A DNA stretch of 64,000 nt from an uncultured Bacilli bacterium (GTDB lineage Bacteria; Bacillota_I; Bacilli_A; RF39; UBA660), in assembly GCA_910578855.1 (NCBI GenBank), contig CAJTRV010000004.1, positions 5,551-69,550 of the forward strand, read 5' to 3'. This document shows, in pieces, positions 24,140 through 61,503 of the stretch (positions are counted from its first letter, which is position 1; the number at the start of each line of letters is the position of its first letter). Under the pieces are notes generated by a model that was not told where the DNA came from, made no database searches, and was given only the letters and a program-made list of their open reading frames with translations. Made by a program: the position numbers and the translations under genes.

Positions 24140-24216
24140 GGACCTTTAGCTCAGTTGGTTAGAGCATCCGGCTCATAACCGGACGGTCGATGGTTCGAGT
24201 CCATCAAGGTCCACCA
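24140..24216 (+). tRNA. tRNA with CAU anticodon, most likely tRNA-Ile2 (lysidine-modified) rather than Met
   Basis: Cloverleaf folded by hand: acceptor GGACCTT/AAGGTCC, anticodon loop ctCATaa, T-loop GGTTCGAGTCC, encoded CCA. The C4-G69 and C5-G68 pairs match known TilS determinants. Confidence 0.85.
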
Positions 24217-24222
24217 TTACTT

Positions 24223-24307
24223 GCGAGTGTGGCGAAATTGGCAGACGCACTAGACTTAGGATCTAGCGCCTTATGGCATGGGGGTTCAAGTCCCTTCACT
24301 CGCACCA
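24223..24307 (+). tRNA. tRNA-Leu (UAG), class II with long variable arm
   Basis: Acceptor GCGAGTG/CACTCGC, anticodon loop ctTAGga, long variable arm, T-loop TTCAAGT, encoded CCA. Confidence 0.9.
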
Positions 24308-24589: not shown

Positions 24590-25135
24590 TTCATTAAAAA
24601 ACGTCTATACCCAAAACTGCACCAGCGTATTTTGACCAAGTTACTTTAAATTCACTTTGGACTACTTTTAGATTAGCAGTAAATTTTATAGTCTTTACTT
24701 GGAACATATTTTAAGAAATTTCTAATTAAACGTACAATACATCTTTGTACAATAACACCTTTAAAGATTCCTTTTGCACCATCCTCAATACCACTGACTT
24801 CATCCATAGAAATAAAGAATATGTCTTCAACACCACGAGTTTTTATCTCATCAAATATTTGCACCCAAGAATGCTTCGATTCTGTCTCATTTAACCAGAT
24901 ACCAGTGAGATCCCTATGACTATCATCATATCCAAGTATTATATAAACAGCACTTTCCGTACGTTCAGATTCATAACACATCATAACATACACATTTCAC
25001 CCTGTAGCATCACCTCAAACATAGGAACAAATACATCTTTTAATACATCCGGCACTTCTTTAGTAGTTTCTGGTTGATAAACACCTAACATTGATTGAAA
25101 TAGCTCATTTTACTTCTCATACTTTTACCTCTTTC
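24590..25135 (-). pseudogene. IS256-family (mutator-type) transposase relic, internally deleted and frameshifted
   Basis: The 106-aa track ORF contains the IS256-like core ...GVEDIFFISMDEVSGIEDGAKGIFKGVIVQRCIVRLIRNFLKYV. Other frames upstream read ...KEVPDVLKDVFVPMFEVMLQGEM (N-terminal region) and downstream ...SEFKVTWSKY. No intact transposase-length ORF and no terminal inverted repeats were identified. Confidence 0.6.
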
Positions 25136-25210: not shown

Positions 25211-25558
25211 TTATAATTTGATGCTAATATTTTTAGTTGCTCCCTGATTACCAGTTGCAAATACTTTTATACTTTCTGGATCTGTTAAAAAGTACATGTT
25301 GTAAACTACTTTTTCCCTTATTAATTGTAACCATTTATTATCATCATCAACCATAGATCTACCAAACCTTGAAATTAGAACTAAATCGTCACCAATTTCA
25401 GTTATGTTTCTTTTTATTGTATCAACGTCATTGTGAATAAATCCACATGCATCTGAACAAGCTAAAAGATAATCTAGCGCCTGAAAATCTTCTAAACTTT
25501 GAAGTCGATTCCAAAGCCTACCACTTTTTAAAGTCGTCAAACTTGCTAAACTTATCAA
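25211..25558 (-). CDS. Hypothetical protein, possibly a 5'-truncated remnant
   Basis: The track start is a TTG. The frame stays open 36 more codons upstream with no ATG or SD, and the upstream gene ends only about 90 nt away. Confidence 0.3.
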   Translation of the reverse strand: MISLASLTTLKSGRLWNRLQSLEDFQALDYLLACSDACGFIHNDVDTIKRNITEIGDDLVLISRFGRSMVDDDNKWLQLIREKVVYNMYFLTDPESIKVFATGNQGATKNISIKL

Positions 25559-26650: not shown

Positions 26651-26937
26651 TTTAACCTCCGATATTTAAATTTTTCCTTTTGATAATTATACCATTTTTT
26701 ATAAATTTATAATAGAATACTAAAATCTTTTTATATGCTTTTTATTTAACCAAAAGTTACATAATTATAATCGATATCGTAAATATAGTATTAAATCAAT
26801 ATAGCTCCATCTTATCCTATTGTATACAACTCTATCTAATTACCGATCCCTGTCCCCTAACCTCATCAAAAATACACGTTATTCATAAAAAATATGCTAT
26901 AATAGTTATAATCATTTTAACCATTGGAGGTGTTGGA

Positions 26938-27537
26938 TTGTCAAAGATATCAAATGTTATAACAATGCTTAATCTTCTAGCAACTGGTAAAAAATATGGC
27001 ATTAAAGAACTCGCTAATCTGCTAGAAGTATCACCAAGAATGATTAGAATATATAAAGAAGAGTTAGAAAAAGCAGGAATCTATATTGATTCTATTATGG
27101 GACCATATGGAGGATATGTCTTAAATCAAACAATTAGAATTCCAAAACGTAAATTTAAACAAGAAGATTATCTATTACTCGATCAACTACTAACGAATCA
27201 TATTTCTAATCTAGAAAAAGAAAAACTAGAACTATTAAAAGATAAAATTAGAGGTATCTACATTGGAAGTACCCAAGAAAGAGTCGAATTAAATTTGGAC
27301 GATTACAATTTAAAAAAATATAATATTTTAACACGAGCCATTAAAGAAAGACAAAAAGTAAATACCTTATATTATTCTTATAACAAAGGTGAACATGAAA
27401 GAGTAATCTGTCCAGCTGAAATGTTTTTATTTAAAGATGGCTGGTATTGTGCCGCCTATTGCACCCTTAAACACGATATGAGACACTTTGAATTAAAACG
27501 AATTAGAAATATAGAACTTTTAGATGATAAATTTTAG
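26938..27537 (+). CDS. HTH plus WYL-domain transcriptional regulator (YafY/BrxR/CapW-like architecture)
   Basis: 199 aa with a TTG start and SD ggagg at 26926-26930. The N-terminal HTH is YGIKELANLLEVSPRMIRIYKEEL. The C-terminal WYL-like segment is FLFKDGWYCAAYC...RHFELKRI. Confidence 0.7.
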   Translation: MSKISNVITMLNLLATGKKYGIKELANLLEVSPRMIRIYKEELEKAGIYIDSIMGPYGGYVLNQTIRIPKRKFKQEDYLLLDQLLTNHISNLEKEKLELLKDKIRGIYIGSTQERVELNLDDYNLKKYNILTRAIKERQKVNTLYYSYNKGEHERVICPAEMFLFKDGWYCAAYCTLKHDMRHFELKRIRNIELLDDKF

Positions 27538-27549
27538 AGTAGACCATAT

Positions 27550-27588
27550 ATTACCTCCTTACGTGATAAGATTCATGTAGGAGGTAAT
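27550..27588 (+). promoter_or_regulatory. Perfect 10-bp inverted repeat that sequesters the SD of the downstream gene
   Basis: attacctcct (27550-27559) pairs with aggaggtaat (27579-27588) across a 19-nt loop. The 3' arm is the SD of the ATG at 27596. Confidence 0.6.
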
Positions 27589-27595
27589 TTTAATT

Positions 27596-28510
27596 ATGAA
27601 AGACAATATGAATGATAATTTTTCTAAATTACAAGCAAGAGTCTTCGATTCTATAGGCAAAACAGATTTACTAGCAATACGAAATATTTTATCTACAATA
27701 AAGGACCCTACACTGGTAAGTGGGGTCGGTGGTTCATCCGTAGTGAGTTTATTTTTATCCAAAGTATTAAGTGCTAAAAATAATATTATATGTGAAGATG
27801 TGACCCCAAGAGACTTAAATTATAAAAATTTACAAGGTTTTAAAAATATCATCGTCTGTAGTTATGGAGGGCTTAACTATGGTGTTACAACAGCCTTTAA
27901 TCATGATTTAACAAAATATTTATTGGCTAGGAACACCAAAGACGAAATCATCAATCTTCAATATCAAAACGATGATCTAGAAAAAAGTTTTATTTCACTG
28001 GCGGCAACTTTAATCCCAATGACTATTTCCTTGATGTATTATTTGGACAATGATCCTACGATTATCTATGAAATTTTGAATTCATCACCTCAGTTTGATT
28101 TTATCGATCATGATATCTATGAAATATTGACTGGATACGAAACGAGCACAGCCGCAAGATTCATGGAATCAACCCTAGTCGAAGCAGGGCTTGCAATTCC
28201 TATCCTCCACGATAAATATGACTATTGTCATGGAAGAACAACATTAGGCTTTCAACAAGATCATGGTTTACTATTCTTTAATAATCATAATGAGTTAGAC
28301 CAACTATATAGCGAGATACTAAATCATGCCTATCACAACATCATCACAATCGATCGAAAATATGATGATCATATTATTAACGATTATTATTTTACCTATA
28401 TAAGTATGCTATTATGTAAGAAAATTGCCGAACAAAAAGGAAAAGATTTATCAAATGTAAGTTATTCGCCACTCGTCAAAAAACTATATTTTTATAAAGG
28501 AGAAATGTAA
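27596..28510 (+). CDS. SIS-domain-like protein of unknown function
   Basis: 304 aa. VSGVGGSSVVSLFLSKVL and IIVCSYGGLNYGV resemble the SIS phosphosugar-binding fold (GxGxS ... S-x-S-G). The C-terminal half is unrecognised. Confidence 0.4.
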   Translation: MKDNMNDNFSKLQARVFDSIGKTDLLAIRNILSTIKDPTLVSGVGGSSVVSLFLSKVLSAKNNIICEDVTPRDLNYKNLQGFKNIIVCSYGGLNYGVTTAFNHDLTKYLLARNTKDEIINLQYQNDDLEKSFISLAATLIPMTISLMYYLDNDPTIIYEILNSSPQFDFIDHDIYEILTGYETSTAARFMESTLVEAGLAIPILHDKYDYCHGRTTLGFQQDHGLLFFNNHNELDQLYSEILNHAYHNIITIDRKYDDHIINDYYFTYISMLLCKKIAEQKGKDLSNVSYSPLVKKLYFYKGEM

Positions 28511-28511
28511 A

Positions 28512-28537
28512 AAAAGTCTACAATTAAATAGACTTTT
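28512..28537. terminator. Bidirectional hairpin between convergent genes
   Basis: The sequence is aaaagtcta-(8 nt)-tagactttt, flanked by A and T runs. It overlaps the stop codon of the FkbM gene. Confidence 0.6.
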
Positions 28538-29480
28538 TGATTTCATTCTTCTCAGGATAGATCGCAAATAAAACAATTTCCGTTGGAAAAATATTACTAC
28601 CATAAAATCTTAAATAAAATTCATATCCGGGACAAATCTCCTCGATCATTTTAGGAATTTTCCACAAATCCTCATGGTTATGGTAAACAGATAGTAATAA
28701 TTTAGGATGATCTTCTACAATATGTCGCCGACACCCTAATAATGCTTTCGTCTCTGCCCCTTCAATATCCATTTTCACCATTGTAATTGGTTCACTAATA
28801 TCATCATCCAAGGTTACCGTTTCGACAAATGTATTCCCATTGTCTACTAACACATTGGCAGAAGCATTGACCCTATTCGTATCCATCGAGACAACTTCTT
28901 GTCGATCAGTCACAGCTTTTTTACGACATACAATATTGGGATAATCTTTGACATTTGTTTGGAGATTTAAAAATGTCTCATCCGTCATTTCGTAACAATA
29001 AATTTTTTGATAAGCATCCAAGCCATAACTATGAATAAAGTCTAAGGTCGAATCACCAATATAAGCTCCAACATCAACCAATATTTCTTGATCACAAGTC
29101 ACAATATCTAAATCAAAATAGTGACAATAAGTTTGATCCATTAACTCCTTTAAAGTTGTAAAATCGTAATCATACCAATTATATAATATAGCAAATAATA
29201 ATTTTTTTGAACGATAATCTTTTAAGTGTTGATATAACCAGCGATAATCATCAATATGATCATGAAGTGATTCTGCTTTATTATGAATCTCTTCATATAC
29301 TTTCTTCTGATCATCTAATACACCCCAATAAGGAAAATCAGATAAGAATTGTTCCATTGACTGTTTCACTGCTAGTGGAAGTAGCTGGTACTTCTTCTTG
29401 ATATGTTCAAATACTTCTATCTTCGTTTTTCCTTTTATTTCCGAAGTTAACCATTCAAAATTGCGATCCACATAATTCAT
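28524..29480 (-). CDS. FkbM-family methyltransferase
   Basis: 318 aa with motifs VDVGAYIGD and VKMDIEGAETKAL, typical of the FkbM family. Confidence 0.7.
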   Translation of the reverse strand: MNYVDRNFEWLTSEIKGKTKIEVFEHIKKKYQLLPLAVKQSMEQFLSDFPYWGVLDDQKKVYEEIHNKAESLHDHIDDYRWLYQHLKDYRSKKLLFAILYNWYDYDFTTLKELMDQTYCHYFDLDIVTCDQEILVDVGAYIGDSTLDFIHSYGLDAYQKIYCYEMTDETFLNLQTNVKDYPNIVCRKKAVTDRQEVVSMDTNRVNASANVLVDNGNTFVETVTLDDDISEPITMVKMDIEGAETKALLGCRRHIVEDHPKLLLSVYHNHEDLWKIPKMIEEICPGYEFYLRFYGSNIFPTEIVLFAIYPEKNEIKKSI

Positions 29481-29586: not shown

Positions 29587-30810
29587 TTATTCATTAAAAA
29601 TTCCTTTTAACATATTGGATACCGCAACAAAAATAGCTGATATTCGATACCAAGTAGCAAAGTTAACAATTCCTGTAACTGGTAGATTAAAAACACGTTG
29701 AAATACCTTTACGGCCTCGATCGTATCTGGGCCATATATTCCATTGGCCTTTTGAATGGAAGGAATAGCAGGATAACTCCCTCTAATTTTATTCAATGCA
29801 TTTTGTAATAGTTGAACTTCTTCACCACATGCCCCTTCTGTCAAATTATAACCTGGAAACGAAGTTGGCAACCCTGGGACAATTTCAGCTGTAACAAGCT
29901 CGATGGTATTTCCATAATAATAACGAACAATTTGTAGAGAATTATAACCTTGGTCCCCTAGTGACTTAGACCCCCACTGACTAAGCCAACCTTCTCGCAC
30001 TACATTAATTCCATCACTATATTGGGCAAAAAAAGGATAAGAACGTCCAGGAAATTTTAAATATTCCATAAATACTTCATCGACTACATTAGATATGGTA
30101 TCAAAAATTGTTCGATTATGAGAATATTTTTGATCATATGCAGTCGAAGAGGTAATCGTAAAATTATACCCTTTAGAGTAATACCATTCCGTATAGACCC
30201 GATTTAAAGTAAATGATACAATCGCATGGACATTGGCCTTTAGTGTTTCTCTAGGCCAACTAGGATAAATTTCTGACGATGTGACATTCTTGATATAATC
30301 TGAAAATGATACATAATAATTTGGAGCATAAGTATCCGTAGGAATTCCATCATGAACAATAATATATTCGGGAATGACAACCCGGGGTAATACCTTAGAT
30401 TCCAATGATCCTATCTCTGGATGTTCAACAATTTTGGGAACTTCATTGTCCCATATCGTTGGTGGTGGGACAATTGTTGTTATCTTTCCTGATCCCCCTG
30501 TTGTTGTACTGAGATATACATCCTGAATCGATGTAATACCAGCATAAACTTGAACCCCGAGAACGGTTCCGGTTCCAAGGCCATCTTTGGTTACGGTAAC
30601 ATTATACGTCTCCCAAGGTTGAACTATCGTCTGTGGTTCTAAAGAGTATTCGATATTAGGTGCTTCAAGAGCAATCGCCTCCGTCCTTCCAGATTCATCA
30701 GTAACAACATTAATATTGGTATTATTTCCACTAATATTCACTCTGGCCCCCATTAATGGTTGCGCAACATTATCTACAAACACATTCACAACCAAATGTC
30801 CAATTGCCAT
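29587..30810 (-). CDS. Peptidoglycan-binding protein (N-terminal CarboxypepD_reg-like domain, C-terminal PG_binding_1), possibly SleC-like cortex hydrolase
   Basis: The C-terminal motif is GEEVQLLQNALN...GIYGPDTIEAVKVFQRVFNLPVTGIV. The start is moved to ATG 30810 because the TTG at 30819 abuts the SD. The hydrolase role is a guess. Confidence 0.5.
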   Translation of the reverse strand: MAIGHLVVNVFVDNVAQPLMGARVNISGNNTNINVVTDESGRTEAIALEAPNIEYSLEPQTIVQPWETYNVTVTKDGLGTGTVLGVQVYAGITSIQDVYLSTTTGGSGKITTIVPPPTIWDNEVPKIVEHPEIGSLESKVLPRVVIPEYIIVHDGIPTDTYAPNYYVSFSDYIKNVTSSEIYPSWPRETLKANVHAIVSFTLNRVYTEWYYSKGYNFTITSSTAYDQKYSHNRTIFDTISNVVDEVFMEYLKFPGRSYPFFAQYSDGINVVREGWLSQWGSKSLGDQGYNSLQIVRYYYGNTIELVTAEIVPGLPTSFPGYNLTEGACGEEVQLLQNALNKIRGSYPAIPSIQKANGIYGPDTIEAVKVFQRVFNLPVTGIVNFATWYRISAIFVAVSNMLKGIFNE

Positions 30811-30928
30811 AACACTCAAATCCTTTCTTTCTATAATTCAATATATGTTTTTTAACAACTAATATCATTAAAAGACAACATTTTTCATCTTTCTAATATA
30901 ATACAAGTAATAGAGATGGGGTTATAAA

Positions 30929-31942
30929 ATGAATGATAACAAAAAATACTTTGTTCACCAAGAAACGGTTTCATCACTAGAAAATATGTATTTTAATGAT
31001 GTAATTACGATGATTCAACATCAACTTAAAACATTAGGTTATTATGATGTCAGCATTACCGGTAGCTACGACCACAATACCAAAACAGCAATCAAAAATT
31101 TTCAGACAGATCACCATTTAAAAAACGATGGTACGCTCAATGATCAAACCTGGGATACACTTTACTCTAACAGAAATAATTTAGAGCGCCAAGTAGCGGA
31201 ACGCCAAACAAGACCGGTTCTTAGACTCGGTAGTACTGGCCCATATGTAACGGAGTTACAAACAATTTTAAAAAATCTTCTTTACTATACTGGTACCATT
31301 GATGGTAATTTCGGAAATACTACTGCTCTCGCAGTCAAAACATTTCAGACGAATAATCACTTAACACCAGATGGTGTTGTCGGTCGAGATACTTGGAGTG
31401 CCCTTTCGACGCTATATTCACCACTGGCTATCTGTGATGACAACGAAAATGGAAATGGGAATAATCCAATTTCTTATACAGTGGTGGCCGGGGACTCCTT
31501 ATGGAGTATTGCCAAACGATTTAATACTACCGTTGAGGCAATTAAACAATTAAATCAATTAACGAGTGATGTTATTTATGTTGGTCAGCAACTTCTCATC
31601 CCGAGCGGCAATGATAATGGAACACCGCCAACTTATACCCTATATACGGTGGTAGCTGGTGATTCTCTATGGAATATTGCCAAACGATTTAATACCACCG
31701 TTGAAGAGATTAAAAGCCTCAATAATCTGACAAGTAACCTATTAACTATCGGTCAACAATTAAAGATCCCATCAGATACTTCAAATGTCATCACCTATAC
31801 AGTAATTGCTGGGGATACATTATGGAAAATAGCTCAAAAATTTAATACTACTGTAAATACATTAAAAAGCTTTAACAATCTTACCAATGACACTTTAAAT
31901 ATTGGTCAGCAATTAAGAATCCCAATCAATCGTAACGAATAA
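30929..31942 (+). CDS. Cell-wall-binding protein with 2 PG_binding_1 and 3 LysM domains
   Basis: The pattern TAIKNFQ...L..DG occurs twice. The pattern Y(T)V(V/I)AGD(S/T)LW.IA.(R/K)FNTTV...L...N.LT...(L/I).(I/V)GQQL.IP occurs three times. Confidence 0.8.
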   Translation: MNDNKKYFVHQETVSSLENMYFNDVITMIQHQLKTLGYYDVSITGSYDHNTKTAIKNFQTDHHLKNDGTLNDQTWDTLYSNRNNLERQVAERQTRPVLRLGSTGPYVTELQTILKNLLYYTGTIDGNFGNTTALAVKTFQTNNHLTPDGVVGRDTWSALSTLYSPLAICDDNENGNGNNPISYTVVAGDSLWSIAKRFNTTVEAIKQLNQLTSDVIYVGQQLLIPSGNDNGTPPTYTLYTVVAGDSLWNIAKRFNTTVEEIKSLNNLTSNLLTIGQQLKIPSDTSNVITYTVIAGDTLWKIAQKFNTTVNTLKSFNNLTNDTLNIGQQLRIPINRNE

Positions 31943-31968
31943 AAAATACCATCGAAATGGTATTTTTT
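31943..31968. terminator. Bidirectional rho-independent terminator
   Basis: The sequence is aaaataccat-cgaa-atggtatttt followed by tt. Confidence 0.75.
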
Positions 31969-31973
31969 GTTTC

Positions 31974-32942
31974 TTATATAATTAATCGTTGGCCTGGATA
32001 AATTCTATTGGGATTATCTCCAATCGTTGCTTTATTCTTATTATAAATAGTCTGCCATGTCGTCCCAAATTGTTTGGCAATTTTAGATAAATTATCGCCT
32101 TTTTTTACAATATAAACAGTTGGTTCAACTGCAGTAGATGGCAAGATTAGTACTTGACCTGGATAGATTAGATTGGGATTTTTAATATGATTCAATGCTA
32201 CTAATGTCGCAACAGTTGTTTGGTACCTACTTGCAATCGTCGATAAGTTATCACCAGCTTTTACGACATATGTTTTCTGATTAGTTGGTGGTTCATCTGG
32301 ATCAGTTGGTTCTGTTGATTCATCTAGGTGGTTTAATCCTCGTTCTTTTATGATCATAGGATAATCTAGATAAGCAATATCACGATCGACTCGACCATTA
32401 ATTCCGGAAATACTTCCATCACTCGTATACTGCCACATACCAAATGGTTTATCATAAGTAGGAAGATTACTCCATTGTGCCAACCACTTATCATAGCGAT
32501 CTAATTTAGGTGAATTTAATTTTGATTGAAAAAAGGCTTTGCTCGAATATATTCCTACATAGTATCCAGCCTGCTCTATTTTATCACAAAATGTTTGACA
32601 CATTTTTACCAGCATTTCATTACTATTTTGGTCGGTATAAGAGTTAGCCTCAATATCATAATAAATCGGATATTCTAGTCGGTAATTCTTAGCCAATCGT
32701 AAAGCATGATCTGCTTCACTACTCGCTTCAGCTGTTCCCCTGGCGTAACTAAATAAATAGATTCCAAAGGGAATCCCTAACCGAGTACATTCTGAAGCAT
32801 TACGGTGGAACTTTGTATCATCTTGACTAGTACGATCAACACCATAACCACATCTTAAAATAGCAAAATCAACTTGATCTTTAACTTTTTCCCAATCGAT
32901 ATCACCTTGGTAATAAGAAACATCAATTCCTTGCTTTTCCAT
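31974..32942 (-). CDS. GH25 muramidase (lysozyme) with two C-terminal LysM domains
   Basis: [16 protein letters not shown] and [10 protein letters not shown] are GH25 signatures. Two LysM repeats are present ([13 protein letters not shown] and [13 protein letters not shown]). The start is at MEKQGID. Confidence 0.85.
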
Positions 32943-33025
32943 ATACAACTCCTTTCGTTATTATAGTATACGAATGAAATAATATAAGAGTAAGGAAGTC
33001 AAACTAAAAAAGAAGGAATAACCTT

Positions 33026-33445
33026 CTATTTTTGAATCATGTTTAATAAATTGATTTTAAAAATGTCTTTTTCCGCATGTTCTTTCGAAACCATAACACC
33101 CTTGTAAGTAACCAATTCCGATTGATGACCTTCTGCTAAAATATCTTCCGGTGTAATCGTATCTAACATAATAATATGATCTGCTTCATAAACGTGATAA
33201 TGTAATTTAATATCACCATGGACTTTAGAAAACATGGAATCCGTTGGCAATTTTAATTCATAAGTTACAGTTCCTTTGCTTTGATTGGTAGAAACAATTT
33301 CTCCTAGAAAAATACCAGTTTTTAGTTTTGGATAAAATTCGAAATATAATTTTTTATAGGCTAACATATTATACTTTTTTAAAGAACGTTCAAGCTTCTT
33401 AAATTCATTTTCATTGACATAGTCAAATACGTAAGCACCCTTCAT
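33026..33445 (-). CDS. Hypothetical protein
   Basis: 139 aa with no motif recognised. Confidence 0.4.
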   Translation of the reverse strand: MKGAYVFDYVNENEFKKLERSLKKYNMLAYKKLYFEFYPKLKTGIFLGEIVSTNQSKGTVTYELKLPTDSMFSKVHGDIKLHYHVYEADHIIMLDTITPEDILAEGHQSELVTYKGVMVSKEHAEKDIFKINLLNMIQK

Positions 33446-33565
33446 TATATTTCACCTTCCCCATGCATCTACTATTTTCTATCGTACTTAAATGATAACA
33501 TGATTACTGGTTTTTGTCAAACAAAAAAAGGAAAGATTCCTTTCCTTTAGAAACTTGAATAACAA

Positions 33566-35239
33566 CTATCGTGACATTCCACCAGTAGATGCTTCTACTT
33601 GAACAGGAGTGCCATCAGATAAATACCAGTTACCATCAGCACCCATAATCAAGTCACTATAATAAACTTCCTCAGTCGTCGTTGTAGTAGTTGCACTATT
33701 ACTATTTTCATTTGGTTGCGACTGTCCACCATTATTTGGAAGCACATTACCACTATCGAAACCTGGATAATAGTTGTCTTGTGTATCTTGATTATTATCT
33801 ATAACATTATCGTCCTCAGGTGGCGTTATGTTATTTTTAACAGAATTATATCCTAACATATAATTAGAATCACTTGATTGTGGTGGCAACCCTGCAAGTG
33901 CATCATTTGCCCCACGTTGAACTAATTGTTCAACTGTTTCTTTATTTGACTGTTGATTGTTTTCATCATGAAAACCGGTATCCACTTCTTGACCTTTATG
34001 TTCATTATAATCAGCTACACCTGCATTAATCGTCGTTTTTCCAGTCTTTGGATCAGTTCGCAAATTTTTATAATCCTCCGCTGTCATCTGACTACCTTTT
34101 TGTTTTTTCATTGCTTCTGTATATTCATGTGAATCACTTGCTTGCGAAGCAATTTCACTAGCATTTTTCTTATTTTCAACTTTTACTTTACTAATTTCAA
34201 TCGCGATTTCTTTTAAAGATTTACCACCATCAGACTTTGATTCATCAGTTGCTTTTTCAATTTCAATCATCTCAGTAATATTTTCTAATATTGATGTGAA
34301 AGCACTGGAATAACTAGAATGATTTTCTTCAATAAAATCCGTATTTTCTGTTCTTTCAGCACATGCTTTATCGAGATGATCAATGAAAGTATTTCGAACA
34401 GTTTGATTAATATCCTTATAGCTATGAAAATACTGAGCGTAACTTGTTGCAACGAACATAGCCATTTCACTATAACCAGCTGATCCATTTTGAATTTTAT
34501 CTAAGGTCTTTACCAATTCATCACGATTTTCATTACTTCGTTCTGTATTCAATTTTTGATACAATGCTTGTAACTCATTTAACATCTTCGCATCATATTT
34601 TTTCGGAAATATACTAGACCAATCCACTTTGAATTGATTAGTCATCAACCCAGTATTCAATGATTGTCTATATTCCTCAAGGTATTTCAACGCATCCGCT
34701 CTATTAGATACAAACTCAGAAATATTTAATGATTTAATTCTAGCATCAGTTTTTGCTTCAAAACCAGCTAATATTGAATAAAATGCTAACTTATCATTAG
34801 AAAACCGTCCCTCTTCTAACAATCCATTTTCACCTAATAACTTCTTAATACTAATTCCTTGATCAATTAGCGTTTGGTCTGCTAAAGCATTACGGCTCCA
34901 ATAATCCTCATCAAACAAAACAATATTATTTTTATCTGAACCTGGTTCTTTATCTTTACTATCATTTCCACAACCAGTCAAGGAAACCGCAATTGCTCCA
35001 ATTAGTCCCACTGGAACTAGTATTTTTACAAGTACTCCATACTTTTCTTTAATTTTACTGACAATATTTTCCCGAACACCCTGTTGCTTTTTATAGTCCT
35101 TCACAATTTTATTAATTTTAGTTAATGCTCCATTCGAAAAATCATTTAGTTCAAGTTTCGAAAAGGCTTCCAACACATTTTCCCCGCGATCGAGTGTTCG
35201 TTGTAAAGCTGCAATTATGGACATTTCATATGCATTCAT
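33566..35239 (-). CDS. Hypothetical single-pass envelope protein with Q/N/D/T-rich C-terminal tail
   Basis: 557 aa. An ~80-aa cytoplasmic head is followed by the TM segment ILVPVGLIGAIAVSLTGCG, then a large external region and a low-complexity tail ending NSATTTTTEEVYYSDL. Confidence 0.5.
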   Translation of the reverse strand: MNAYEMSIIAALQRTLDRGENVLEAFSKLELNDFSNGALTKINKIVKDYKKQQGVRENIVSKIKEKYGVLVKILVPVGLIGAIAVSLTGCGNDSKDKEPGSDKNNIVLFDEDYWSRNALADQTLIDQGISIKKLLGENGLLEEGRFSNDKLAFYSILAGFEAKTDARIKSLNISEFVSNRADALKYLEEYRQSLNTGLMTNQFKVDWSSIFPKKYDAKMLNELQALYQKLNTERSNENRDELVKTLDKIQNGSAGYSEMAMFVATSYAQYFHSYKDINQTVRNTFIDHLDKACAERTENTDFIEENHSSYSSAFTSILENITEMIEIEKATDESKSDGGKSLKEIAIEISKVKVENKKNASEIASQASDSHEYTEAMKKQKGSQMTAEDYKNLRTDPKTGKTTINAGVADYNEHKGQEVDTGFHDENNQQSNKETVEQLVQRGANDALAGLPPQSSDSNYMLGYNSVKNNITPPEDDNVIDNNQDTQDNYYPGFDSGNVLPNNGGQSQPNENSNSATTTTTTEEVYYSDLIMGADGNWYLSDGTPVQVEASTGGMSR

Positions 35240-55927: not shown

Positions 55928-56953
55928 CTAATCTTTATTATTTTCTGAAGTTTCTAATAATTTTGTACTTTCAATAAATTTATCGAAGTCAGAAATATAT
56001 AATTGGTCTTGTTTTTCCTTAAACTTATCATACTCTTTATATGCAAGTTCTTGAGCCACTTTATGAGATATTTTTCCTGCATCATGCAGTATTTCTTGCC
56101 CATTAAATTGTAAAAACGCATCCAATTTTTCTACCCAATCTTTCATTGTCATCGCATTATGATTTTCTGCTTGTAATTCAGCATAATCTAAATACATAGT
56201 AACTATTCTATTTAAGTTTTTTAATTCTTTTTCTGTCAAATAATTTTTAGCAATATCAACATCATATTTATAAATCGTTCCATCAGGAGAACCTGTCCAA
56301 TTTGTTAAACCCATATTGTCTTTTTCTGAATCAACTCTATTATAAATAATCTCTGCAGCAGTATTACCAGTGACTGAATAATGAAGTTTATTCTGCACAG
56401 TTTTAAAAAAAGTTTTAGTGATTTCTGAATCTTTATCATAATCAACACTACAAGATGAATATATATCTGTTATCTTTTGGTAAAATCTTCTTTCACTAGA
56501 ACGAATATTTCTAATTCTTTCTAGTGTTCTTTCAAAATAATCTTCTCCAAAAATATAATTTGGATTTTTTAATCTCTCGTCATCCATAACAACGCCAGTA
56601 ATTAAGTATTCTTTTAGAACTTTTGTTGCCCATATTCTAAATTGCGTTGCTTTTTTGGAATTAACTCTATAACCTACAGCAATAATCATATCTAAATTGT
56701 ATATTTTAGATTTTCTTCCACCTGTACTTTCGTCGGAAATTCCGACAGAAGTTTCTTCCTTAAGTTCACCACTATTTAATATATTATTAATATGTTCTGT
56801 TATGGTACTTCTACCTACTCCAAATAATTCAGCAATCAAATTTTGCGTCAACCAAATATCATTATTAATTAATAATACATTCACTTTGATATCATTATTA
56901 TCATCACGATATATTAAAAAGTCGTGGGTAGTTATTTGTAAATTATTTTTCAT
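55928..56953 (-). CDS. RhuM-family protein (N-terminal HTH, conserved RhuM core)
   Basis: 341 aa with motifs WLTQNLIAELFGVGRSTITEHINNI, YNLDMIIAVGYRVNSKKATQFRIWATKVLKEYL, SERRFYQKITDIY and MYLDYAELQA. Confidence 0.75.
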   Translation of the reverse strand: MKNNLQITTHDFLIYRDDNNDIKVNVLLINNDIWLTQNLIAELFGVGRSTITEHINNILNSGELKEETSVGISDESTGGRKSKIYNLDMIIAVGYRVNSKKATQFRIWATKVLKEYLITGVVMDDERLKNPNYIFGEDYFERTLERIRNIRSSERRFYQKITDIYSSCSVDYDKDSEITKTFFKTVQNKLHYSVTGNTAAEIIYNRVDSEKDNMGLTNWTGSPDGTIYKYDVDIAKNYLTEKELKNLNRIVTMYLDYAELQAENHNAMTMKDWVEKLDAFLQFNGQEILHDAGKISHKVAQELAYKEYDKFKEKQDQLYISDFDKFIESTKLLETSENNKD

Positions 56954-57209
56954 TTATTTTCACCGCTTTCTTATGTTCTTAAATGTCGTAATCACCTATC
57001 TAATTTCTATTATAAATAGCGCAAAAATTACTATATTTTTATGAATTTTTATTGTTTTTTATCATTTTTTAATGAAAACATGCAAGATATAAATTGGATA
57101 GTTTCCTTTATTTATAAGGGTTTAAGGGTGTTCTTAATTAAATCGTAATCAACCAGTTTATGTTTGCCTGATTTTGTCGATTTTCATTATTCATTTATTT
57201 CACTTCCTT
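56954..57209 (-). repeat. Cassette-boundary repeat B, containing a decoy rbgA 5' end
   Basis: Positions 57107-57209 match 59039-59141 at 99 of 103 nt; the rest is roughly 80% identical by eye. It contains SD, ATG (57194) and MNNENRQNQANINWLITI* (57138-57194), the core ccagtt at 57153-57158, and two cgtaatc motifs at 56987 and 57144. Confidence 0.8.
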
Positions 57210-57704
57210 CAATTCAATATTATTTTCTAATAAAACGCTTTCTAATGTTTCATTTTCGTTTATAATATATAAGTTCTCATAATTTCTTTGCAAACAATCC
57301 TCATAGAATGGAACAAATACATTTCCCAAGCCACTAATAAAACTTTCATTATTACCTCGATTTATACACTTTCTCTTTACATCTTCCCAATTATTAATAT
57401 TAGGATATGCTATACTGTATTTAATATTATTTTTATCGAAATAATCGAAGTGTTCTGGTTTTAATTGAACTAAAACAACATCATATTCCTTTATAGCCAT
57501 TCGAATGGCTTTATAGTAATTCTTTGGCCATTCACTATTTACTTCTCTTTTCGTTCCTTTTCTTGCTTCAACAGGTACATTTTCAAGATTAGTATTAATA
57601 TATTTAAAATTACTCGATTCTAAATCAATTACATTCCTATATTTTTTACCCAAAATGCTTTTTCCACACGTTGCAAATCCTGCAATTATTATTCCCTTAG
57701 CCAT
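57195..57704 (-). CDS. P-loop NTPase/kinase-like protein (cassette 2 cargo)
   Basis: 169 aa with Walker A IIIAGFATCGKS. The C-terminal KEVK and stop are encoded by the repeated rbgA SD segment, and the TAA abuts the decoy ATG (TAAATG). Confidence 0.55.
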   Translation of the reverse strand: MAKGIIIAGFATCGKSILGKKYRNVIDLESSNFKYINTNLENVPVEARKGTKREVNSEWPKNYYKAIRMAIKEYDVVLVQLKPEHFDYFDKNNIKYSIAYPNINNWEDVKRKCINRGNNESFISGLGNVFVPFYEDCLQRNYENLYIINENETLESVLLENNIELKEVK

Positions 57705-57993
57705 TATTTACCTCTTGTCTATATAAATTTTCTAAAATTTTAGTTAAACAATCATCTGCAGTTAAATTACTATTTTCTGAAAATCTTATTCTAACTAATT
57801 TCCCATTGACTTTAAATATATATGGGTTCTTTTTCTTCATTACAAACGCTAATATTCTTTCATTACTAGGTTTTCTTCTATCTATTTTTATATCTGTTAT
57901 TTCATCCACATCTTCTAATTTTACATCGTCAAGATTTACATTTCTACATCTCTCTAATTTTTCTGCTAATTCTTTAATATTATGTTTATTCAT
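57697..57993 (-). CDS. Small DUF6870-like protein (cassette 2)
   Basis: The start is at MNKHNIKELAEK (ATG 57993). The first 143 nt match the cassette 1 paralog at 139 of 143 positions, and the C-terminal half is diverged. It overlaps the next gene by 8 nt. Confidence 0.5.
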   Translation of the reverse strand: MNKHNIKELAEKLERCRNVNLDDVKLEDVDEITDIKIDRRKPSNERILAFVMKKKNPYIFKVNGKLVRIRFSENSNLTADDCLTKILENLYRQEVNNG

Positions 57994-58056
57994 ATTATAC
58001 CTTCTTTCTATAATAATTTTATTATTTAGAAAGAAATAACACAAATGTGCAAAATA

Positions 58057-58899
58057 CTAGATATTATCTTTTTCTCCTAATAGTTTTATCTTTTCTGCAT
58101 TATTAAGTATATCAAGTTGATACTTAGCAATGCTACTTAATATTTCAAATCTTTCTTCTTTGCTTTTTCCTTCTTTAATTAGTTCTGCATTATGTGATTC
58201 TAAATTAGATAATACTGTTAATTCATTTATCGATGCATAATCTCTAACATTTGAGTTTTTTGCTAAATTCGGATTAAGTTCTCTCCATCTTTTAGCAGTT
58301 GTGTTAAATAAGGCAACATTTAAAATATCTGCTTCTTCTGCATACTTTAACCATTCTCTATCTTTATAATAATCATTATCAGGTAATATATAATTTTTAA
58401 TTGCATCTGTATGAATAAGATAATTATTTTTGGTTAAGATTCTTTTTATATCCCATTCCCTATTTTGATTTTCTAACTCTTTTAGTCTTTCAAATTCTTT
58501 TATCAAATATAGTTTAAAAACCGGACTAATAGAAGATGCAAATTCAAAAGCAATGTCTTTATGAGCATAAGTTCCACCATATTTTCCACGCTTCGAATAT
58601 ATCCCAATTGCATTTGTTTTACTACACCATTCTGTAACACTTAGTGTAAAAGTATGAAGTCCTGCCTCACTTTTAAACCCGTCGAATTCGACGGAATTAA
58701 AATTTGGATTGTAAATTGACTCCCAAGTACCTAAAAATTCTAAAGTAATTCTATTTCTTAACCAATTTCTGATAACATCATCTGATGTAGATTTTCCTTC
58801 TTTAAACTTGGTAAAATCAGAAATACAAATATAATCGCTATCATTTATATTTGTTATGTTCACTTTAATATTTTGAACTTCAATTATTTTGTTTGGCAT
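58057..58899 (-). CDS. KilA-N domain protein
   Basis: 280 aa. ICISDFTKFKEG...IRNWLRNRITLEFLGTWE...GGTYAHKDIAFEFASSISP has the KilA-N layout. Confidence 0.7.
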   Translation of the reverse strand: MPNKIIEVQNIKVNITNINDSDYICISDFTKFKEGKSTSDDVIRNWLRNRITLEFLGTWESIYNPNFNSVEFDGFKSEAGLHTFTLSVTEWCSKTNAIGIYSKRGKYGGTYAHKDIAFEFASSISPVFKLYLIKEFERLKELENQNREWDIKRILTKNNYLIHTDAIKNYILPDNDYYKDREWLKYAEEADILNVALFNTTAKRWRELNPNLAKNSNVRDYASINELTVLSNLESHNAELIKEGKSKEERFEILSSIAKYQLDILNNAEKIKLLGEKDNI

Positions 58900-59141
58900 A
58901 TATTCGCCTCTTTTCCATGTCCTTAAAATTCGTAATCACCTATCTAATTCTTATAATAAATAATACCAAAATTATTAGTTTTTATATTTTTAATTATTTT
59001 TTAATGAAAATATGCAAGATCTAATCTAGATAATTTTCTTTATTTATAAGGGTTTAATGGTATTCTTAATTAAATCGTAATCAGCCAGTTTATGTTTGCC
59101 TGATTTTGTCGATTTTCATTATTCATTTGTTTCACTTCCTT
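58900..59141 (-). repeat. Cassette-boundary repeat C, containing a decoy rbgA 5' end
   Basis: It is homologous to repeat B throughout. It contains SD, ATG (59126) and MNNENRQNQANINWLITI* (59070-59126), the core ccagtt at 59085-59090, and cgtaatc motifs at 58931 and 59076. Confidence 0.8.
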
Positions 59142-59147
59142 TATTAT

Positions 59148-59321
59148 TTAACATTGAGAATTTAAAAAATTTGCAATTTGTTCTAAATTTTTAAATATTT
59201 TTCCATCATTTCTTATAACTATTCCTCTTGCACCATATCTCATTCTAGGCTCATTCATTTCAATCATACTTTCGCCTAAATCTTCATCAGTTATTTTACA
59301 TATTAATTTCATTAATATCAT
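59148..59321 (-). pseudogene. Possible 5' fragment of a NUDIX-type hydrolase gene (57 codons)
   Basis: My translation is MILMKLICKITDEDLGESMIEMNEPRMRYGARGIVIRNDGKIFKNLEQIANFLNSQC*. The RxGARGIVIxxDGKI stretch resembles the strand preceding a Nudix box, but the box itself is absent. Confidence 0.25.
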
Positions 59322-59338
59322 CTCGCTTTCATTTTATA

Positions 59339-59863
59339 TTACAACTTGTATTCTTTTATCTCACAATTCTTCAATCCACGATTTAAAAACCAACCATCAT
59401 TAATGCCATCAAAATATGCACTAAAAGCTTTTGAAACACCACTATGTGCAACAATTAAAACACTTTTATAATTTTGAGTTTTAAGTTCATCTAAAAAATT
59501 ATATATTCTATCAAAAAAGTCTTTTATATTTTCAGAGGTTCCATATTGAATTGTTGTATTATAATTCCAATATTCATCACGATTAGTTATTTCAAGAGGT
59601 TTACCACTTAAATCTCCACAACTTCTTTCTTGAATTCTATCATCAATAATAATTTCATTATTATTAGCATTAATAATATTAGCTGTGTGTTTTGCCCTAA
59701 TTAAAGGTGAAGAAATTATAATATCAAAGTTTATATCTTTAATTTTGTCTCTTAATTCTTCTGCTTGACTTATTCCAAGTTCAGTTAAATCTTCATCTTT
59801 TGTATTATATTGTTTCAATGCATTATGAGGTACTTCACCATGTCTTACTATATATATTTTCAT
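59339..59863 (-). CDS. Histidine phosphatase family protein (phosphoglycerate-mutase-like)
   Basis: 174 aa with the RHG motif IYIVRHGEVPHN, plus SSPLIRAKHTA and VAHSG. Confidence 0.75.
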   Translation of the reverse strand: MKIYIVRHGEVPHNALKQYNTKDEDLTELGISQAEELRDKIKDINFDIIISSPLIRAKHTANIINANNNEIIIDDRIQERSCGDLSGKPLEITNRDEYWNYNTTIQYGTSENIKDFFDRIYNFLDELKTQNYKSVLIVAHSGVSKAFSAYFDGINDGWFLNRGLKNCEIKEYKL

Positions 59864-59989
59864 TTATTGACTCCTTTTTTATAGAATTTTTATAGTAACA
59901 TTTTATCATCGAGGATATATATTTATTTTATTATTGATACCATTATATTAAAATCATACTCATTTTTACTATTTTTATCTGTTTCTAAG

Positions 59990-61254: not shown

Positions 61255-61396
61255 ATATAACACCTCTTTTCTATGGTCTTAAATGCCGTAATCATCTTTC
61301 TAATTCTTAAATAAAAATATGGAAAATTTAAAATCGTACAACCTCCTTATTTATAGGGATTTACTTAAGAGTGCAATAAATCGTAATCAAACAGTT
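61255..61396 (-). repeat. Cassette-boundary repeat D, the outermost, degenerate copy with no rbgA decoy
   Basis: It shares with B and C the blocks cttaaatgccgtaatca, tttataggg/tttataaggg and aaatcgtaatcaaacagtt. Homology stops at acagtt (61391-61396). Beyond that a different short frame, MRQEKRIAKVIKKVFHQSELTV*, reads into the core. Confidence 0.6.
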
Positions 61397-61503
61397 AATT
61401 CTGACTGATGAAAAACTTTTTTGATTACTTTCGCTATTCTTTTTTCTTGTCTCATTTTTCCCTTTTGATATATATCCATATTTTTCACTTTCTTTTCAAT
61501 AGT

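Follow-up and report, generated by a model that had tools for sequence, protein, structure and literature searches.

WYL domains have an Sm-like fold, and the characterised regulators that join such a domain to a helix-turn-helix (HTH) all act on DNA according to the literature. Those WYL regulators that have been characterised respond to ssDNA and govern defence or DNA-damage regulons, apart from one recent case that senses c-di-GMP, and these two are the only WYL ligands that the literature records. One WYL protein, the Cas13d-associated WYL1, reportedly binds ssRNA. For dimerisation and allostery, known WYL regulators use a C-terminal WCX domain, which occupies about 100 aa after the WYL domain. 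Promoters that depend on the WYL regulator DriD have a -10 element and no -35, with the activator site positionally fixed over the -35 position (PMC13004042). Among the SIS phosphosugar enzymes, the catalytic Glu and His lie 16 residues apart in GlmS (E488/H504), FrlB (E224/H240) and FraB (E214/H230) (PMC10285752).

Here, we describe a locus in which a WYL regulator without the WCX domain stands directly before a strongly diverged SIS protein. It lies within a 64,000-nt stretch of DNA, the whole of which we analysed and call the window, from an uncultured member of the RF39-like Bacilli. These bacteria are abundant in the human and animal gut, are uncultured, and have very small genomes.

Results

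The gene pair and its surroundings

The ORF map placed the gene for the WYL regulator (199 aa) at 26938-27537 on the plus strand, with a TTG start and GGAGG 7 nt upstream, and the gene for the SIS-like enzyme (304 aa) at 27596-28510 on the same strand, leaving a spacer of 58 nt between them. The enzyme resembles tandem-SIS phosphosugar isomerases and deglycases and belongs to an unannotated family. Both ORFs, the gap between them, and a perfect 10-bp inverted repeat within that gap (27550-27559 and 27579-27588) were found exactly where a first-pass annotation of this DNA had put them. Upstream of the WYL gene, we read a candidate promoter with the extended -10 TGCTATAAT from the sequence at 26895..26903 (plus strand). 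TGnTATAAT also occurs 25-35 nt before the WYL start in many homologous loci, and when we looked upstream of their WYL genes for a shared operator, these regions were otherwise unconserved. Downstream of the pair, an inverted repeat (AAAAAGTCTA / TAGACTTTTT, 28511..28538, with no strand assigned) lies between the SIS stop codon and a convergent FkbM-methyltransferase gene. This repeat is likely a bidirectional terminator, in which case SIS would be the last gene of its unit in the window.

The pair had also been described as lying in an AT-rich patch next to tRNA genes and a transposase relic. The patch is present but only mild, with 27.5% GC at 26-28 kb vs approximately 34% for the whole window. 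The two neighbours are likewise real, but they do not adjoin the pair: the tRNA-Met/Leu genes (24140-24307) and the Mutator-family transposase fragment (24673-24993) are 2-3 kb away.

The regulator and the enzyme

Searching the regulator against Pfam, we detected the WYL domain PF13280 at residues 129-193 (60.3 bits, E = 1.8e-16, cut-off 21.8) and an N-terminal winged HTH, HTH_11, at residues 10-60, the latter with 25.0 bits, which is exactly its cut-off; an Rrf2-type HTH also matched at residues 8-64. The PADLOC 'WYL' profile matched the regulator with E = 1.5e-29, and the best of the PADLOC profiles was that for CRISPR-associated WYL. Its closest PDB sequences were PafBC, which was the top match (E = 3e-5), 7qfz, CapW and BrxR, all of them matching through the WYL domain only. 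The WCX domain is absent, as the regulator stops at residue 199, 6 residues past the WYL match; the aligned WYL segment ends at residue 187 in BrxR and at residue 203 in CapW, proteins of 291 and 299 aa, respectively. Across homologous loci, the WYL protein is 57-75% identical, and it is better conserved than the enzyme.

The 304-aa protein had no match in Pfam (E <= 0.01), in PADLOC or among PDB sequences. The Pfam SIS model PF01380 does not recognise it, and its sole NCBIfam signal was a sub-threshold PGI/PMI match (E = 0.017). Distant, kinase-fused members of the family do match PF01380, with E-values of 7e-8 to 5e-7, and they thereby link the family to SIS by sequence. The protein comprises two consecutive SIS (alpha/beta) domains, and the glycine/serine loops singled out in the first-pass annotation are SIS phosphate-binding loops. 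S47, E196 and H212 are invariant, with E196 and H212 kept in 38 sequences down to 20% identity. The latter two residues are 16 apart, as in GlmS, FrlB and FraB; we equated them with the GlmS/FrlB residues by fold, invariance and this spacing rule, not by a residue-level superposition. In FrlB, the reference residues for phosphate binding are the first-loop Ser S46 and, in an S-x-S-G-x-T loop, S91, S93, G94 and T96. At the latter loop, the wider family has the consensus S-Y-S-G-x-T. The window protein reads S89-Y-G-G92-L-N94 and its close relatives S-Y-S-G-N-N, meaning that the second Ser and the Thr have been replaced in the window clade. The enzyme also carries an invariant motif of its own, H-[DE]-K-x-x-[YF]-[CS]-H-G-R. 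A profile-vs-sequence hhalign comparison of the family with E. coli GlmS yielded nothing (probability 0.1), and a comparison of the family profile with PDB sequences yielded only noise.

The family holds approximately 350 sequence clusters and is missed by current domain libraries. What had been called an unrecognised SIS-like protein is indeed SIS-like, but can now be placed by its catalytic Glu/His signature: it is probably a catalytically equipped phosphosugar enzyme of the GlmS/FrlB type, in a strongly diverged tandem-SIS form. Its reaction is most likely the isomerisation, deamination or deglycation of a 6-phospho-ketose or ketosamine. The first-pass annotation had allowed for an ordinary sugar-phosphate isomerase in a conserved catabolic context; we found no conserved catabolic operon around the 304-aa gene.

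Conservation of the pair

Homologs of the enzyme are consistently WYL-linked, with a WYL gene directly upstream of SIS in 84/89 loci, and three of the five unlinked loci are contig ends that still carry the spacer motif. The two-gene module that the first-pass annotation had suspected is therefore genuine: the pair is a conserved chromosomal module of RF39-like gut Bacilli, present in at least 161 GTDB species, with flanking genes that differ between loci. Relatives at 24-37% enzyme identity are WYL-linked too, including kinase- and Ham1-fused forms. In the distant members (a PfkB-SIS fusion, P0180 and a Ham1-SIS fusion), the WYL gene has been retained and the spacer measures 54-61 nt; both of the distant-member spacers that we read (L091 and L092) contain the same spacer element. 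Paralogous copies of the pair within one genome remain linked as well.

In approximately 19/96 loci, an RdgB/Ham1 housekeeping gene is translationally coupled directly behind SIS. The WYL-less loci, L044 and L051, are also without the 5' arm of the spacer hairpin and the conserved box, both of which are described below. In L044, the Shine-Dalgarno sequence (SD) of an intact SIS gene directly follows the beginning of the WYL gene, the result of a deletion that leaves SIS on the WYL promoter and suggests that its unregulated expression is tolerated.

The intergenic hairpin

The hairpin reported from the 10-bp repeat is real, but it is longer than that repeat. The RNA of the spacer is predicted to fold at 27550..27588 (plus strand) into 16 bp (10 bp, a 1-nt bulge and a further 6 bp) closed by a 6-nt loop, with the anti-SD CCTCCT in the 5' arm (27550-27566), the loop at 27567-27572 and the SD in the 3' arm (27573-27588). 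Its dG is -21.5 kcal/mol (z = -5.5), and 0/200 shuffles were equally stable. The SD of the SIS gene, AGGAGG (27579..27584, plus strand), lies 11 nt before the ATG and is fully paired in the hairpin; among MFE folds of 51 homologous spacers, the SD nucleotides were 92% paired.

RNAalifold predicted no structure from a plain MAFFT alignment of the spacers, because bulges and variable loops shift the 3' arms out of register, a problem that was overcome by a covariance model (R1) built from 12 in-register sequences. R1 detected the hairpin in 77/82 sources, and 90.7% of cells were paired in its alignment compared with 41-61% in slid controls. We found compensatory double changes in 12/14 hairpin pairs, and 0/500 shuffles reached the observed values, in an alignment that was fitted to the model structure and whose sequences are phylogenetically related. 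The sense fold was more stable than the antisense fold in 50/51 sequences, and the hairpin contained 106 G.U pairs vs 2 C.A mismatches; this G.U excess, together with the sense-strand stability, indicates selection on RNA and excludes a purely DNA palindrome. From this, we concluded that the SD-sequestering hairpin is maintained by RNA-level selection, and the covariation test by which the first-pass annotation would have refuted it did not do so. Pair 14-73 was unpaired in 23/62 rows, and the 5' side is better conserved than its 3' pairing partners. With Rfam 15, only two tRNAs passed the gathering threshold in the window, and nothing at 26800-27700 was better than E = 1.

We also asked whether a ribosome that finishes translating WYL could couple translation of the two genes. 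Reasoning from the sequence and general knowledge, we regard this as unlikely: the hairpin starts 10-13 nt past the WYL stop codon, just outside the region unwound by a terminating ribosome.

According to the first-pass annotation, no T-run follows the repeat. This holds only insofar as the U-tract of the window is weak; a T-rich tract (TTTTAATT, 27588..27595, plus strand) is present between the hairpin and the ATG, and a T-run is the rule in homologous loci. Runs of at least 5 T were found in 64% of homologous SIS spacers vs at most 14% of other SD-bearing genes from the same loci (Fisher p = 8.5e-13). A simple pattern scan called a terminator-like site at the hairpin, covering its inner part only. 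Given the weak U-tract, termination may be inefficient in the window itself. The hairpin had been proposed to act as a translational lock opened by a ligand; judged by these features, it looks instead like an insulator against transcripts reading through from the WYL gene, combining a terminator with SD sequestration, and its loop holds a -10-like element.

The conserved box and the loop element

Ahead of the hairpin, we found a 17-nt box (TAGACCATATATTACCT; family consensus TWGACNAWATAYTWCCT) at 27540..27556 on the plus strand, overlapping the first 7 nt of the 5' arm. It begins 0-5 nt past the WYL stop codon, always within the transcribed region, and ten of its columns are invariant among 51 distinct sequences. 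The box occurs once per locus, only at the WYL-SIS junction, in 75/96 loci. We looked for further copies that might point to a regulon and found none, either as an exact match elsewhere in the window or in approximately 700 kb of flanks. The box is a candidate binding site of the WYL protein. It lacks dyad symmetry, contrary to what one would expect of a site for a dimeric HTH protein.

The hairpin loop coincides exactly with the hexamer TAAGAT of an extended -10-like element (TGATAAGAT, 27564..27572, plus strand). Over the nine columns of this element, the counts among the 51 sequences were T 39, G 46, any nucleotide, T 51, A 50, T 38, A/T, A/T and T 46, giving the consensus TGnTAnnnT of an extended -10. 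The diagnostic -10 positions are conserved in 46-51/51 sequences, and the middle of the hexamer varies freely. An A/T-rich loop might match TAnnnT partly through base composition alone, an explanation that the invariance at the diagnostic positions argues against. The box lies 10 nt upstream, and its distance to the TAnnnT of the loop is fixed, the stretch between them being free of indels. No -35 was found at 16-18 nt from the -10. We rejected the TTGAC/TAGAC of the box as a -35, since its distance of 21 nt from the -10 is too great and fits no standard promoter geometry.

The loop element is probably an internal promoter of the SIS gene, with a predicted transcript start at approximately 27578-27581. 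In the predicted fold of an RNA starting at 27579, the SD is unpaired (dG -3.3 kcal/mol, z = +0.7).

Discussion

We give about an even chance to a reading in which the spacer acts as an insulator, through termination and SD sequestration, and encloses an internal promoter that depends on the WYL protein, in a module made up of a WYL regulator and a GlmS-type enzyme. In RNA made from the WYL promoter, the spacer would fold into a stable hairpin, usually followed by a U-tract, which would end the majority of transcripts immediately ahead of the SIS start codon. Transcripts that read through would have their SD buried in the hairpin, and the net effect would be to insulate expression of the regulator from that of the enzyme. 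At the DNA level, the loop would serve as an extended -10, and the box, at a fixed distance, would occupy the expected place of the -35, which is missing. This layout is like that of DriD/PafBC-driven promoters, from which we infer binding of the WYL protein to the box. It may switch the internal promoter according to a nucleotide-like ligand, presumably by activation rather than repression. Internal transcripts, which would start at approximately 27578-27581, would be without the 5' arm and so would have a free SD. The 58-nt spacer would then be one sequence read twice: in DNA it would be a promoter, and in RNA a terminator that also traps the SD.

The same features can be read in other ways. 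The hairpin might be a regulated terminator and SD sequestrator with a trans-acting opener, for which the WYL protein bound to the box in RNA is the most attractive candidate; the enzyme would then be made from the bicistronic mRNA only with ligand, much as in the action of RAT-binding antiterminators. RNA-level selection on the hairpin would suit this arrangement, as would a box (UAGACNAWAUA...) that is invariant, single-stranded in the predicted fold, always transcribed and overlapping the start of the 5' arm, and a 5' side that is better conserved than its partners, with pair 14-73 often open. As a matter of general knowledge, so would the Sm-like fold of WYL domains, the ssRNA binding reported for WYL1, and known WYL ligands that are nucleic acids or nucleotides. 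We nevertheless consider it rather unlikely: the regulator has a canonical DNA-binding HTH, of a type known only to act on DNA, the TGnTAnnnT conservation in the loop would be left unexplained, and we found no alternative antiterminator pairing. A dual nucleic-acid binder that recognises the box in DNA as well as in the mRNA that encodes it is in our view distinctly doubtful. Bound to the single-stranded box at the base of the terminator/SD hairpin, such a protein would be a ligand-controlled antiterminator or translational activator of a hitherto unrecognised metabolite-repair enzyme, a deglycase-like SIS protein that works with the house-cleaning pyrophosphatase RdgB/Ham1; if true, no WYL riboregulator would precede it, nor any WYL sensor of small-molecule damage, as opposed to DNA damage or phage. 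The hairpin could also be a passive attenuator that ends or dampens transcription from the WYL gene, with enzyme translation held to a low, fixed fraction, any internal promoter constitutive, the WYL protein regulating itself or something else, and the pairing a product of shared ancestry and a compact genome. The terminator-like layout, the consensus promoter that many WYL genes have of their own, and the RdgB/Ham1 coupling, which suggests steady expression, would all agree with this, but we judge it unlikely because the linkage holds down to 24% enzyme identity, through rearranged neighbourhoods and in paralogous copies, the non-pairing box is invariant and unique to the junction, and both WYL-less loci have lost the spacer element too. 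Finally, the inverted repeat does flank a -10-like element, and the WYL repressors CapW and BrxR are generally known to bind inverted repeats, as would be the case for a palindromic DNA operator straddling the -10 and bound by a dimeric repressor. This is very improbable given that the inner arms change sequence with pairing kept, that the G.U excess and the stability of the sense strand are expected only for RNA, and that the conserved outer arms, approximately 28 bp apart centre to centre, are not on one helix face.

The first-pass annotation had suggested a ligand- or damage-responsive module with a silenced effector, pointing to the defence and stress-induced accessory systems near which WYL regulators commonly sit. 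Read as a defence or stress module, or as a mobile island, a CapW/BrxR-like WYL repressor would silence a potentially harmful enzyme until phage infection or DNA damage. Characterised WYL regulators do sense ssDNA and govern defence and damage regulons, the top PADLOC profile of our regulator is CRISPR-associated, the SIS gene is silenced at the level of its SD, and one distant locus (L094) adjoins a restriction-modification pair. However, PADLOC had no match for the 304-aa protein, the FkbM methyltransferase or an FAD reductase, and only the regulator matched its generic WYL profiles; relatives were also absent from 2.9 million viral contigs and from 72,556 plasmids. On the strength of these empty searches, we rejected a mobile or defence origin of the pair. 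Its distribution is order-wide, in different chromosomal neighbourhoods, and looks vertical, the protein is equipped for catalysis like ordinary phosphosugar enzymes, there is coupling or fusion to RdgB/Ham1 and to sugar kinases, and L044, in which the WYL gene is deleted and SIS intact, tolerates unregulated expression. We accordingly give a defence or stress effector very little credence; the pair is no defence island but an ordered metabolic module.

On the preferred reading, that of an insulated enzyme gene with a WYL-dependent promoter inside the hairpin, an obligate, order-wide partnership of a minimal WYL protein with a phosphosugar enzyme would widen the range of WYL-controlled functions. 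The fusion or coupling to PfkB and RdgB/Ham1 provides leads to a missing sugar-phosphate, amino-sugar or Amadori-product step, and the covariance model of the spacer is ready for use in annotating RF39-like genomes.

Comparison with known systems

With the isomerase domain of GlmS and with NagB-II, FrlB and FraB, the enzyme shares the Glu/His pair 16 residues apart; a phosphate-loop Ser is present, an S-x-S-G-x-T loop is seen in the family consensus, and the PfkB fusions of distant members mirror the kinase-plus-deglycase logic of frl/fra loci. It differs from these enzymes in being only 10-16% identical to them and in having no Pfam, NCBIfam or PDB sequence match, in the S-Y-G-G-L-N loop of the window clade and its own H-[DE]-K-x-x-[YF]-[CS]-H-G-R motif, and in its setting, which is no sugar-utilisation operon but a pairing with WYL, often with RdgB/Ham1 coupled behind.

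DriD of Caulobacter and PafBC of mycobacteria likewise combine a winged HTH (wHTH) with WYL, and their promoter pattern appears to fit the layout of the box and the -10. In contrast to them, the regulator described here has 199 aa and no WCX, the box has no obvious dyad, the candidate target is a phosphosugar enzyme rather than a DNA-damage regulon, and the putative promoter lies inside a terminator-like hairpin. CapW and BrxR (wHTH-WYL-WCX) resemble our regulator in their WYL-domain sequence and in the position of the WYL gene immediately upstream of its presumed target; here, however, there is no WCX, the neighbour is not a defence system, and the pair is chromosomal and order-wide rather than carried on mobile elements.

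As in other intercistronic SD-sequestering hairpins and intrinsic terminators, the 3' arm is the SD, most members have a U-tract, and the hairpin starts just past the stretch that a ribosome would cover while terminating on the preceding gene. Unlike those attenuators, this one conserves an extended -10 in its loop, is preceded by an invariant unpaired box and belongs to no Rfam family. Lastly, regulators of the RpiR/MurR family have an HTH fused to an SIS sensor, whereas the SIS protein here is separate, has two domains and keeps the catalytic Glu and His, indicating that it is probably an enzyme and not a sensor; the sensor domain of the regulator is instead WYL.

A divergent, probable SIS enzyme encoded downstream of a WYL-domain regulator

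The 304-aa protein encoded at 27596–28510 (+) had no match in Pfam, PADLOC or PDB sequences, its sole signal being a sub-threshold NCBIfam match to archaeal PGI/PMI over residues 37–92. We compared an AlphaFold model built from a 38-sequence alignment (pLDDT 91.2, pTM 0.92) with known structures, and obtained scores of 25.8 for Lmo0035, 25.2 for the Pyrococcus GlcN6P deaminase, 24.1 for the GlmS isomerase domain, 23.0 for AgaS, 20.1 for FrlB and 18.1 for archaeal PGI/PMI, in agreement with Foldseek (E 4.5e-13). The family is small: among 1.84 billion representatives, an exhaustive profile search gave no more than 350 clusters at E ≤ 0.001.

Six residues (G45, S47, E196, K207, H212 and G213) are invariant across family members down to 20% identity. 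In GlmS homologues and the FrlB/FraB deglycases, the catalytic Glu and His are “exactly 16 amino acids apart”, and these enzymes also have in common residues equivalent to FrlB S46 and S91-x-S93-G94-x-T96 (PMC10285752). E196 and H212 of the 304-aa protein are likewise spaced by 16 residues, and the second loop, S-Y-S-G-x-T in the consensus of the wider family, reads S-Y-G-G-L-N in the window protein. This spacing, together with the invariant S47, the loop consensus and the fold, indicates that the glycine/serine loops flagged in the first-pass annotation are the SIS phosphate loops. Judging from sequence and model, it is very probable that the protein is enzymatically active, as an isomerase, deaminase or deglycase on a 6-phospho-sugar. 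It shares its fold and Glu/His arrangement with the GlmS-, NagB-II- and FrlB-type tandem-SIS enzymes but falls outside the Pfam SIS model and has an altered phosphate loop in the window clade; it represents a new, divergent family inside this superfamily.

Two clades of the family have additional segments. In one, the N-terminus is extended by ~118 aa that include a Cys-rich patch, CYCCC, and match nothing in Pfam or NCBIfam (locus L056, 3647–4000; also L060, L063, L066, L071, L074, L081, L086 and L089), and the other (proteins P0033, P0042, P0052 and P0076) has a ~45-aa insertion after residue ~165.

Genomic setting of the pair

The two ORFs (26938–27537 and 27596–28510, both +), their 58-nt spacer and a perfect 10-bp inverted repeat within it (27550–27559/27579–27588) lie just as first described, and the upstream protein has HTH and WYL domains (Pfam: WYL 60.3 bits, HTH_11 25 bits). 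The nearby tRNA-Met/Leu genes and Mutator-transposase fragment are both real, while the AT-rich patch reported around the pair is present only in mild form (27.5% GC vs about 34%). The fragment (24673–24993; 106 aa, matching profile positions 179–271 of 379) lies just downstream of the tRNA-Met and tRNA-Leu genes beside a 115-aa ORF without a family match (25211–25558); both also occur in near-identical strain contigs (L001), and they constitute a decayed insertion sequence.

Between the SIS stop codon and a convergent FkbM-family methyltransferase gene (28524–29480), whose 3′ end it overlaps, there is a perfect 10-bp inverted repeat (AAAAAGTCTA/TAGACTTTTT, 28511–28538) with A- and T-runs on its flanks, likely a bidirectional terminator. 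Farther on are a three-protein cell-wall cluster (29587–32948), encoding a SpoIID-like protein with PG_binding_1 (29587–30819, −), a PG_binding protein with triple LysM (30929–31942, +) and a GH25 muramidase with two LysM repeats (31974–32948, −; domains assigned from near-identical contig L001), and then 139-aa and 557-aa proteins without a Pfam match (33026–35239). GC content is lowest at 56000–62000 (25–28% vs about 34%), where GC and AT skew are strongly negative and all ORFs are short (169–341 aa). GC skew of the + strand is negative throughout the window (1–64000), and the − strand carries nearly every long ORF; the WYL–SIS pair, among the few + strand units, is therefore probably oriented head-on to replication.

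Conservation of the WYL–SIS pairing

Relatives were found in 161 GTDB species representatives, all of them MAGs of uncultured gut “Bacilli/Tenericutes”; Candidatus Coprovivens and CAG:460 are among them, and the set is thus RF39-like. A WYL gene lies directly 5′ of the SIS gene on the same strand in 84/89 loci, a consistent linkage of the kind that the first-pass annotation proposed to survey; three of the five remaining loci are contig ends that still bear the spacer motif. The regulator is better conserved than the enzyme (57–75% vs 45–60% identity), and spacer length is 50–59 nt in nearly all loci. Apparent 402-nt spacers were rejected, being really the N-terminal extension of the enzyme, which starts right after the hairpin. 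The most distant members, a PfkB-SIS fusion (24% identity), P0180 (37%) and a Ham1-SIS fusion, are likewise preceded, across spacers of 54–61 nt, by an HTH-WYL gene of 205–212 aa or by a shorter called ORF, and the same spacer element was present in both distant spacers read (L091 and L092). One MAG, CAKOTU01, has two paralogous modules (L070 on contig 9, L075 on contig 12) whose hairpin inner stems differ while their box and −10 pattern are alike.

Flanking genes are wholly different from lineage to lineage. The alternative raised at first pass was an ordinary sugar-phosphate isomerase in a conserved catabolic context; the protein has the signature of a phosphosugar enzyme but does not lie in a conserved catabolic operon. 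Our literature search returned no paper naming the WYL domain together with the SIS domain, and “sugar isomerase” was co-mentioned with the WYL domain only in a jumbo-phage survey.

Fusions and gene partners

In distant members a PfkB sugar kinase is N-terminal to SIS, a combination resembling the frl and fra fructosamine pathways; these fusions (640–670 aa; P0214, P0218, P0223, P0232, P0244, P0245, P0253, P0259 and P0269) match Pfam SIS at about 1e-7. The fusion locus L091 (5001–6929) keeps both WYL gene and spacer element, and at L094 (5001–6983), which adjoins an NgoMIV-type restriction-modification pair, the place of WYL is taken by a protein of 824 aa that has a HAD (Cof-type) phosphatase domain. 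Other distant members (P0122 and P0177) carry an RdgB/Ham1 pyrophosphatase on their N-terminus, and a gene for such a non-canonical NTP pyrophosphatase lies directly 3′ of SIS, with stop and start overlapping or adjacent, in about 19/96 loci (L008, 6917–7525, and ~18 more, e.g., L011, L013, L017, L020–L023, L030, L033, L036, L038 and L049). The window has no Ham1 homolog.

The spacer encodes a conserved RNA hairpin

As RNA, the inverted repeat forms a hairpin of 16 bp, in which a single-base bulge separates the outer 10 bp from the inner 6 bp and the loop has 6 nt (ΔG −21.5 kcal/mol, z −5.5). Its stability was reached by 0/200 dinucleotide shuffles, and its 3′ arm holds the SD AGGAGG (27579–27584), 11 nt ahead of the ATG. 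Trained on 12 sequences in register, a covariance model found the hairpin in 77/82 sources, starting always at the WYL stop codon. In the alignment 90.7% of cells pair and 12/14 pairs show changes on both sides, values attained by 0/500 shuffles (slid controls, 41–61%); the SD-sequestering hairpin proposed at first pass is therefore conserved with covariation. Independently of alignment, the sense fold was stabler than the antisense in 50/51 distinct spacers (−17.3 vs −12.3 kcal/mol), and the helices of these 51 spacers contain 106 G·U pairs vs 2 C·A mismatches, with 92% of SD nucleotides paired. Selection thus acts on the + strand RNA and not on a DNA palindrome. No Rfam family matched the element.

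A T-run of at least 5 lies between hairpin and ATG in 64% of SIS genes vs ≤14% of other SD-bearing genes at the same loci (Fisher p 8.5e-13), from which the ancestral layout appears terminator-like. The earlier remark that no T-run follows the hairpin fits the window in part, where the tract is a weaker TTTTAATT, but not most homologs.

The loop itself is constrained in sequence and matches the extended −10 consensus TGnTAnnnT (counts among 51 sequences: T 39, G 46, n, T 51, A 50, n, n, n, T 46); in the window the element is TGATAAGAT (27564–27572, +), its hexamer being exactly the hairpin loop. This element is preceded by a 17-nt box, TWGACNAWATAYTWCCT (27540–27556, +), which is invariant and unpaired, and indels between box and −10 were never seen among homologous spacers. 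The box occurs once per locus, and a search of the whole window and about 700 kb of flanking sequence turned up no further copies. A distance of 21 nt separates its TTGAC-like part from the −10, and there is no −35 at standard distance from the loop −10. Regions upstream of the WYL genes show no conservation among themselves, and many have their own TGnTATAAT.

A model for regulation of the pair

Overall, these features point to a WYL + SIS module that spans the order and has a composite spacer, at once SD trap, putative terminator and putative promoter. In the likeliest model, the WYL gene would be transcribed from its own promoter, and its transcript would fold into the hairpin, terminating transcription and/or burying the SD, so that making the regulator would leave the enzyme undriven. 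The enzyme would instead be transcribed from an internal promoter whose −10 is the hairpin loop; were transcription to begin near 27579, about 7 nt further on, its mRNA would open with the SD, and RNA starting there is predicted to be unstructured (ΔG −3.3 kcal/mol). Two natural variants fit this model. At L044 (3900–4003; CAMKMS010000024.1), a deletion that takes out box, 5′ arm and loop together directly fuses the first ~30 WYL codons to an intact 307-aa SIS gene with its SD, T-run and ATG, in effect a regulator-less, hairpin-less allele, and L051 has neither WYL nor hairpin. The spacer element therefore goes with the regulator.

An RNA switch, in which the hairpin is opened when WYL or a different factor binds the box as single-stranded RNA, would account for the box but leaves the −10 pattern of the loop unexplained, and we consider it rather improbable. 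A little less credit still is due to a passive attenuator with a constitutive promoter, which explains neither the invariant box nor the strict WYL–SIS linkage. Translational coupling by the terminating ribosome is unlikely because the hairpin starts 10–13 nt beyond the stop codon, slightly past the stretch that such a ribosome unwinds. That the spacer is purely a DNA operator is very hard to reconcile with the sense-strand stability and the G·U excess. We give equally little weight to the defence or accessory module first suggested: neither the enzyme nor its neighbours had a PADLOC match, 2.9 million viral contigs and 72,556 plasmids yielded no relatives, and retention of the enzyme without its regulator at L044 and L051 speaks against a toxic effector. 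The pair is neither a defence island nor a routine catabolic operon.

Under the internal-promoter model, the WYL protein would act at the box on sensing a nucleotide-like ligand (the literature gives ssDNA and c-di-GMP as known WYL ligands), and would probably do so as an activator, by analogy with characterized relatives. Promoters of the WYL activator DriD have a good −10, no −35 and a fixed site over the −35 position (PMC13004042). The sequence pattern of the spacer, with its box over the −35 position, resembles this layout, and we infer action at the box from this likeness and from a relation of the layout to PafBC, which gives this regulator’s WYL domain its best PDB sequence match.
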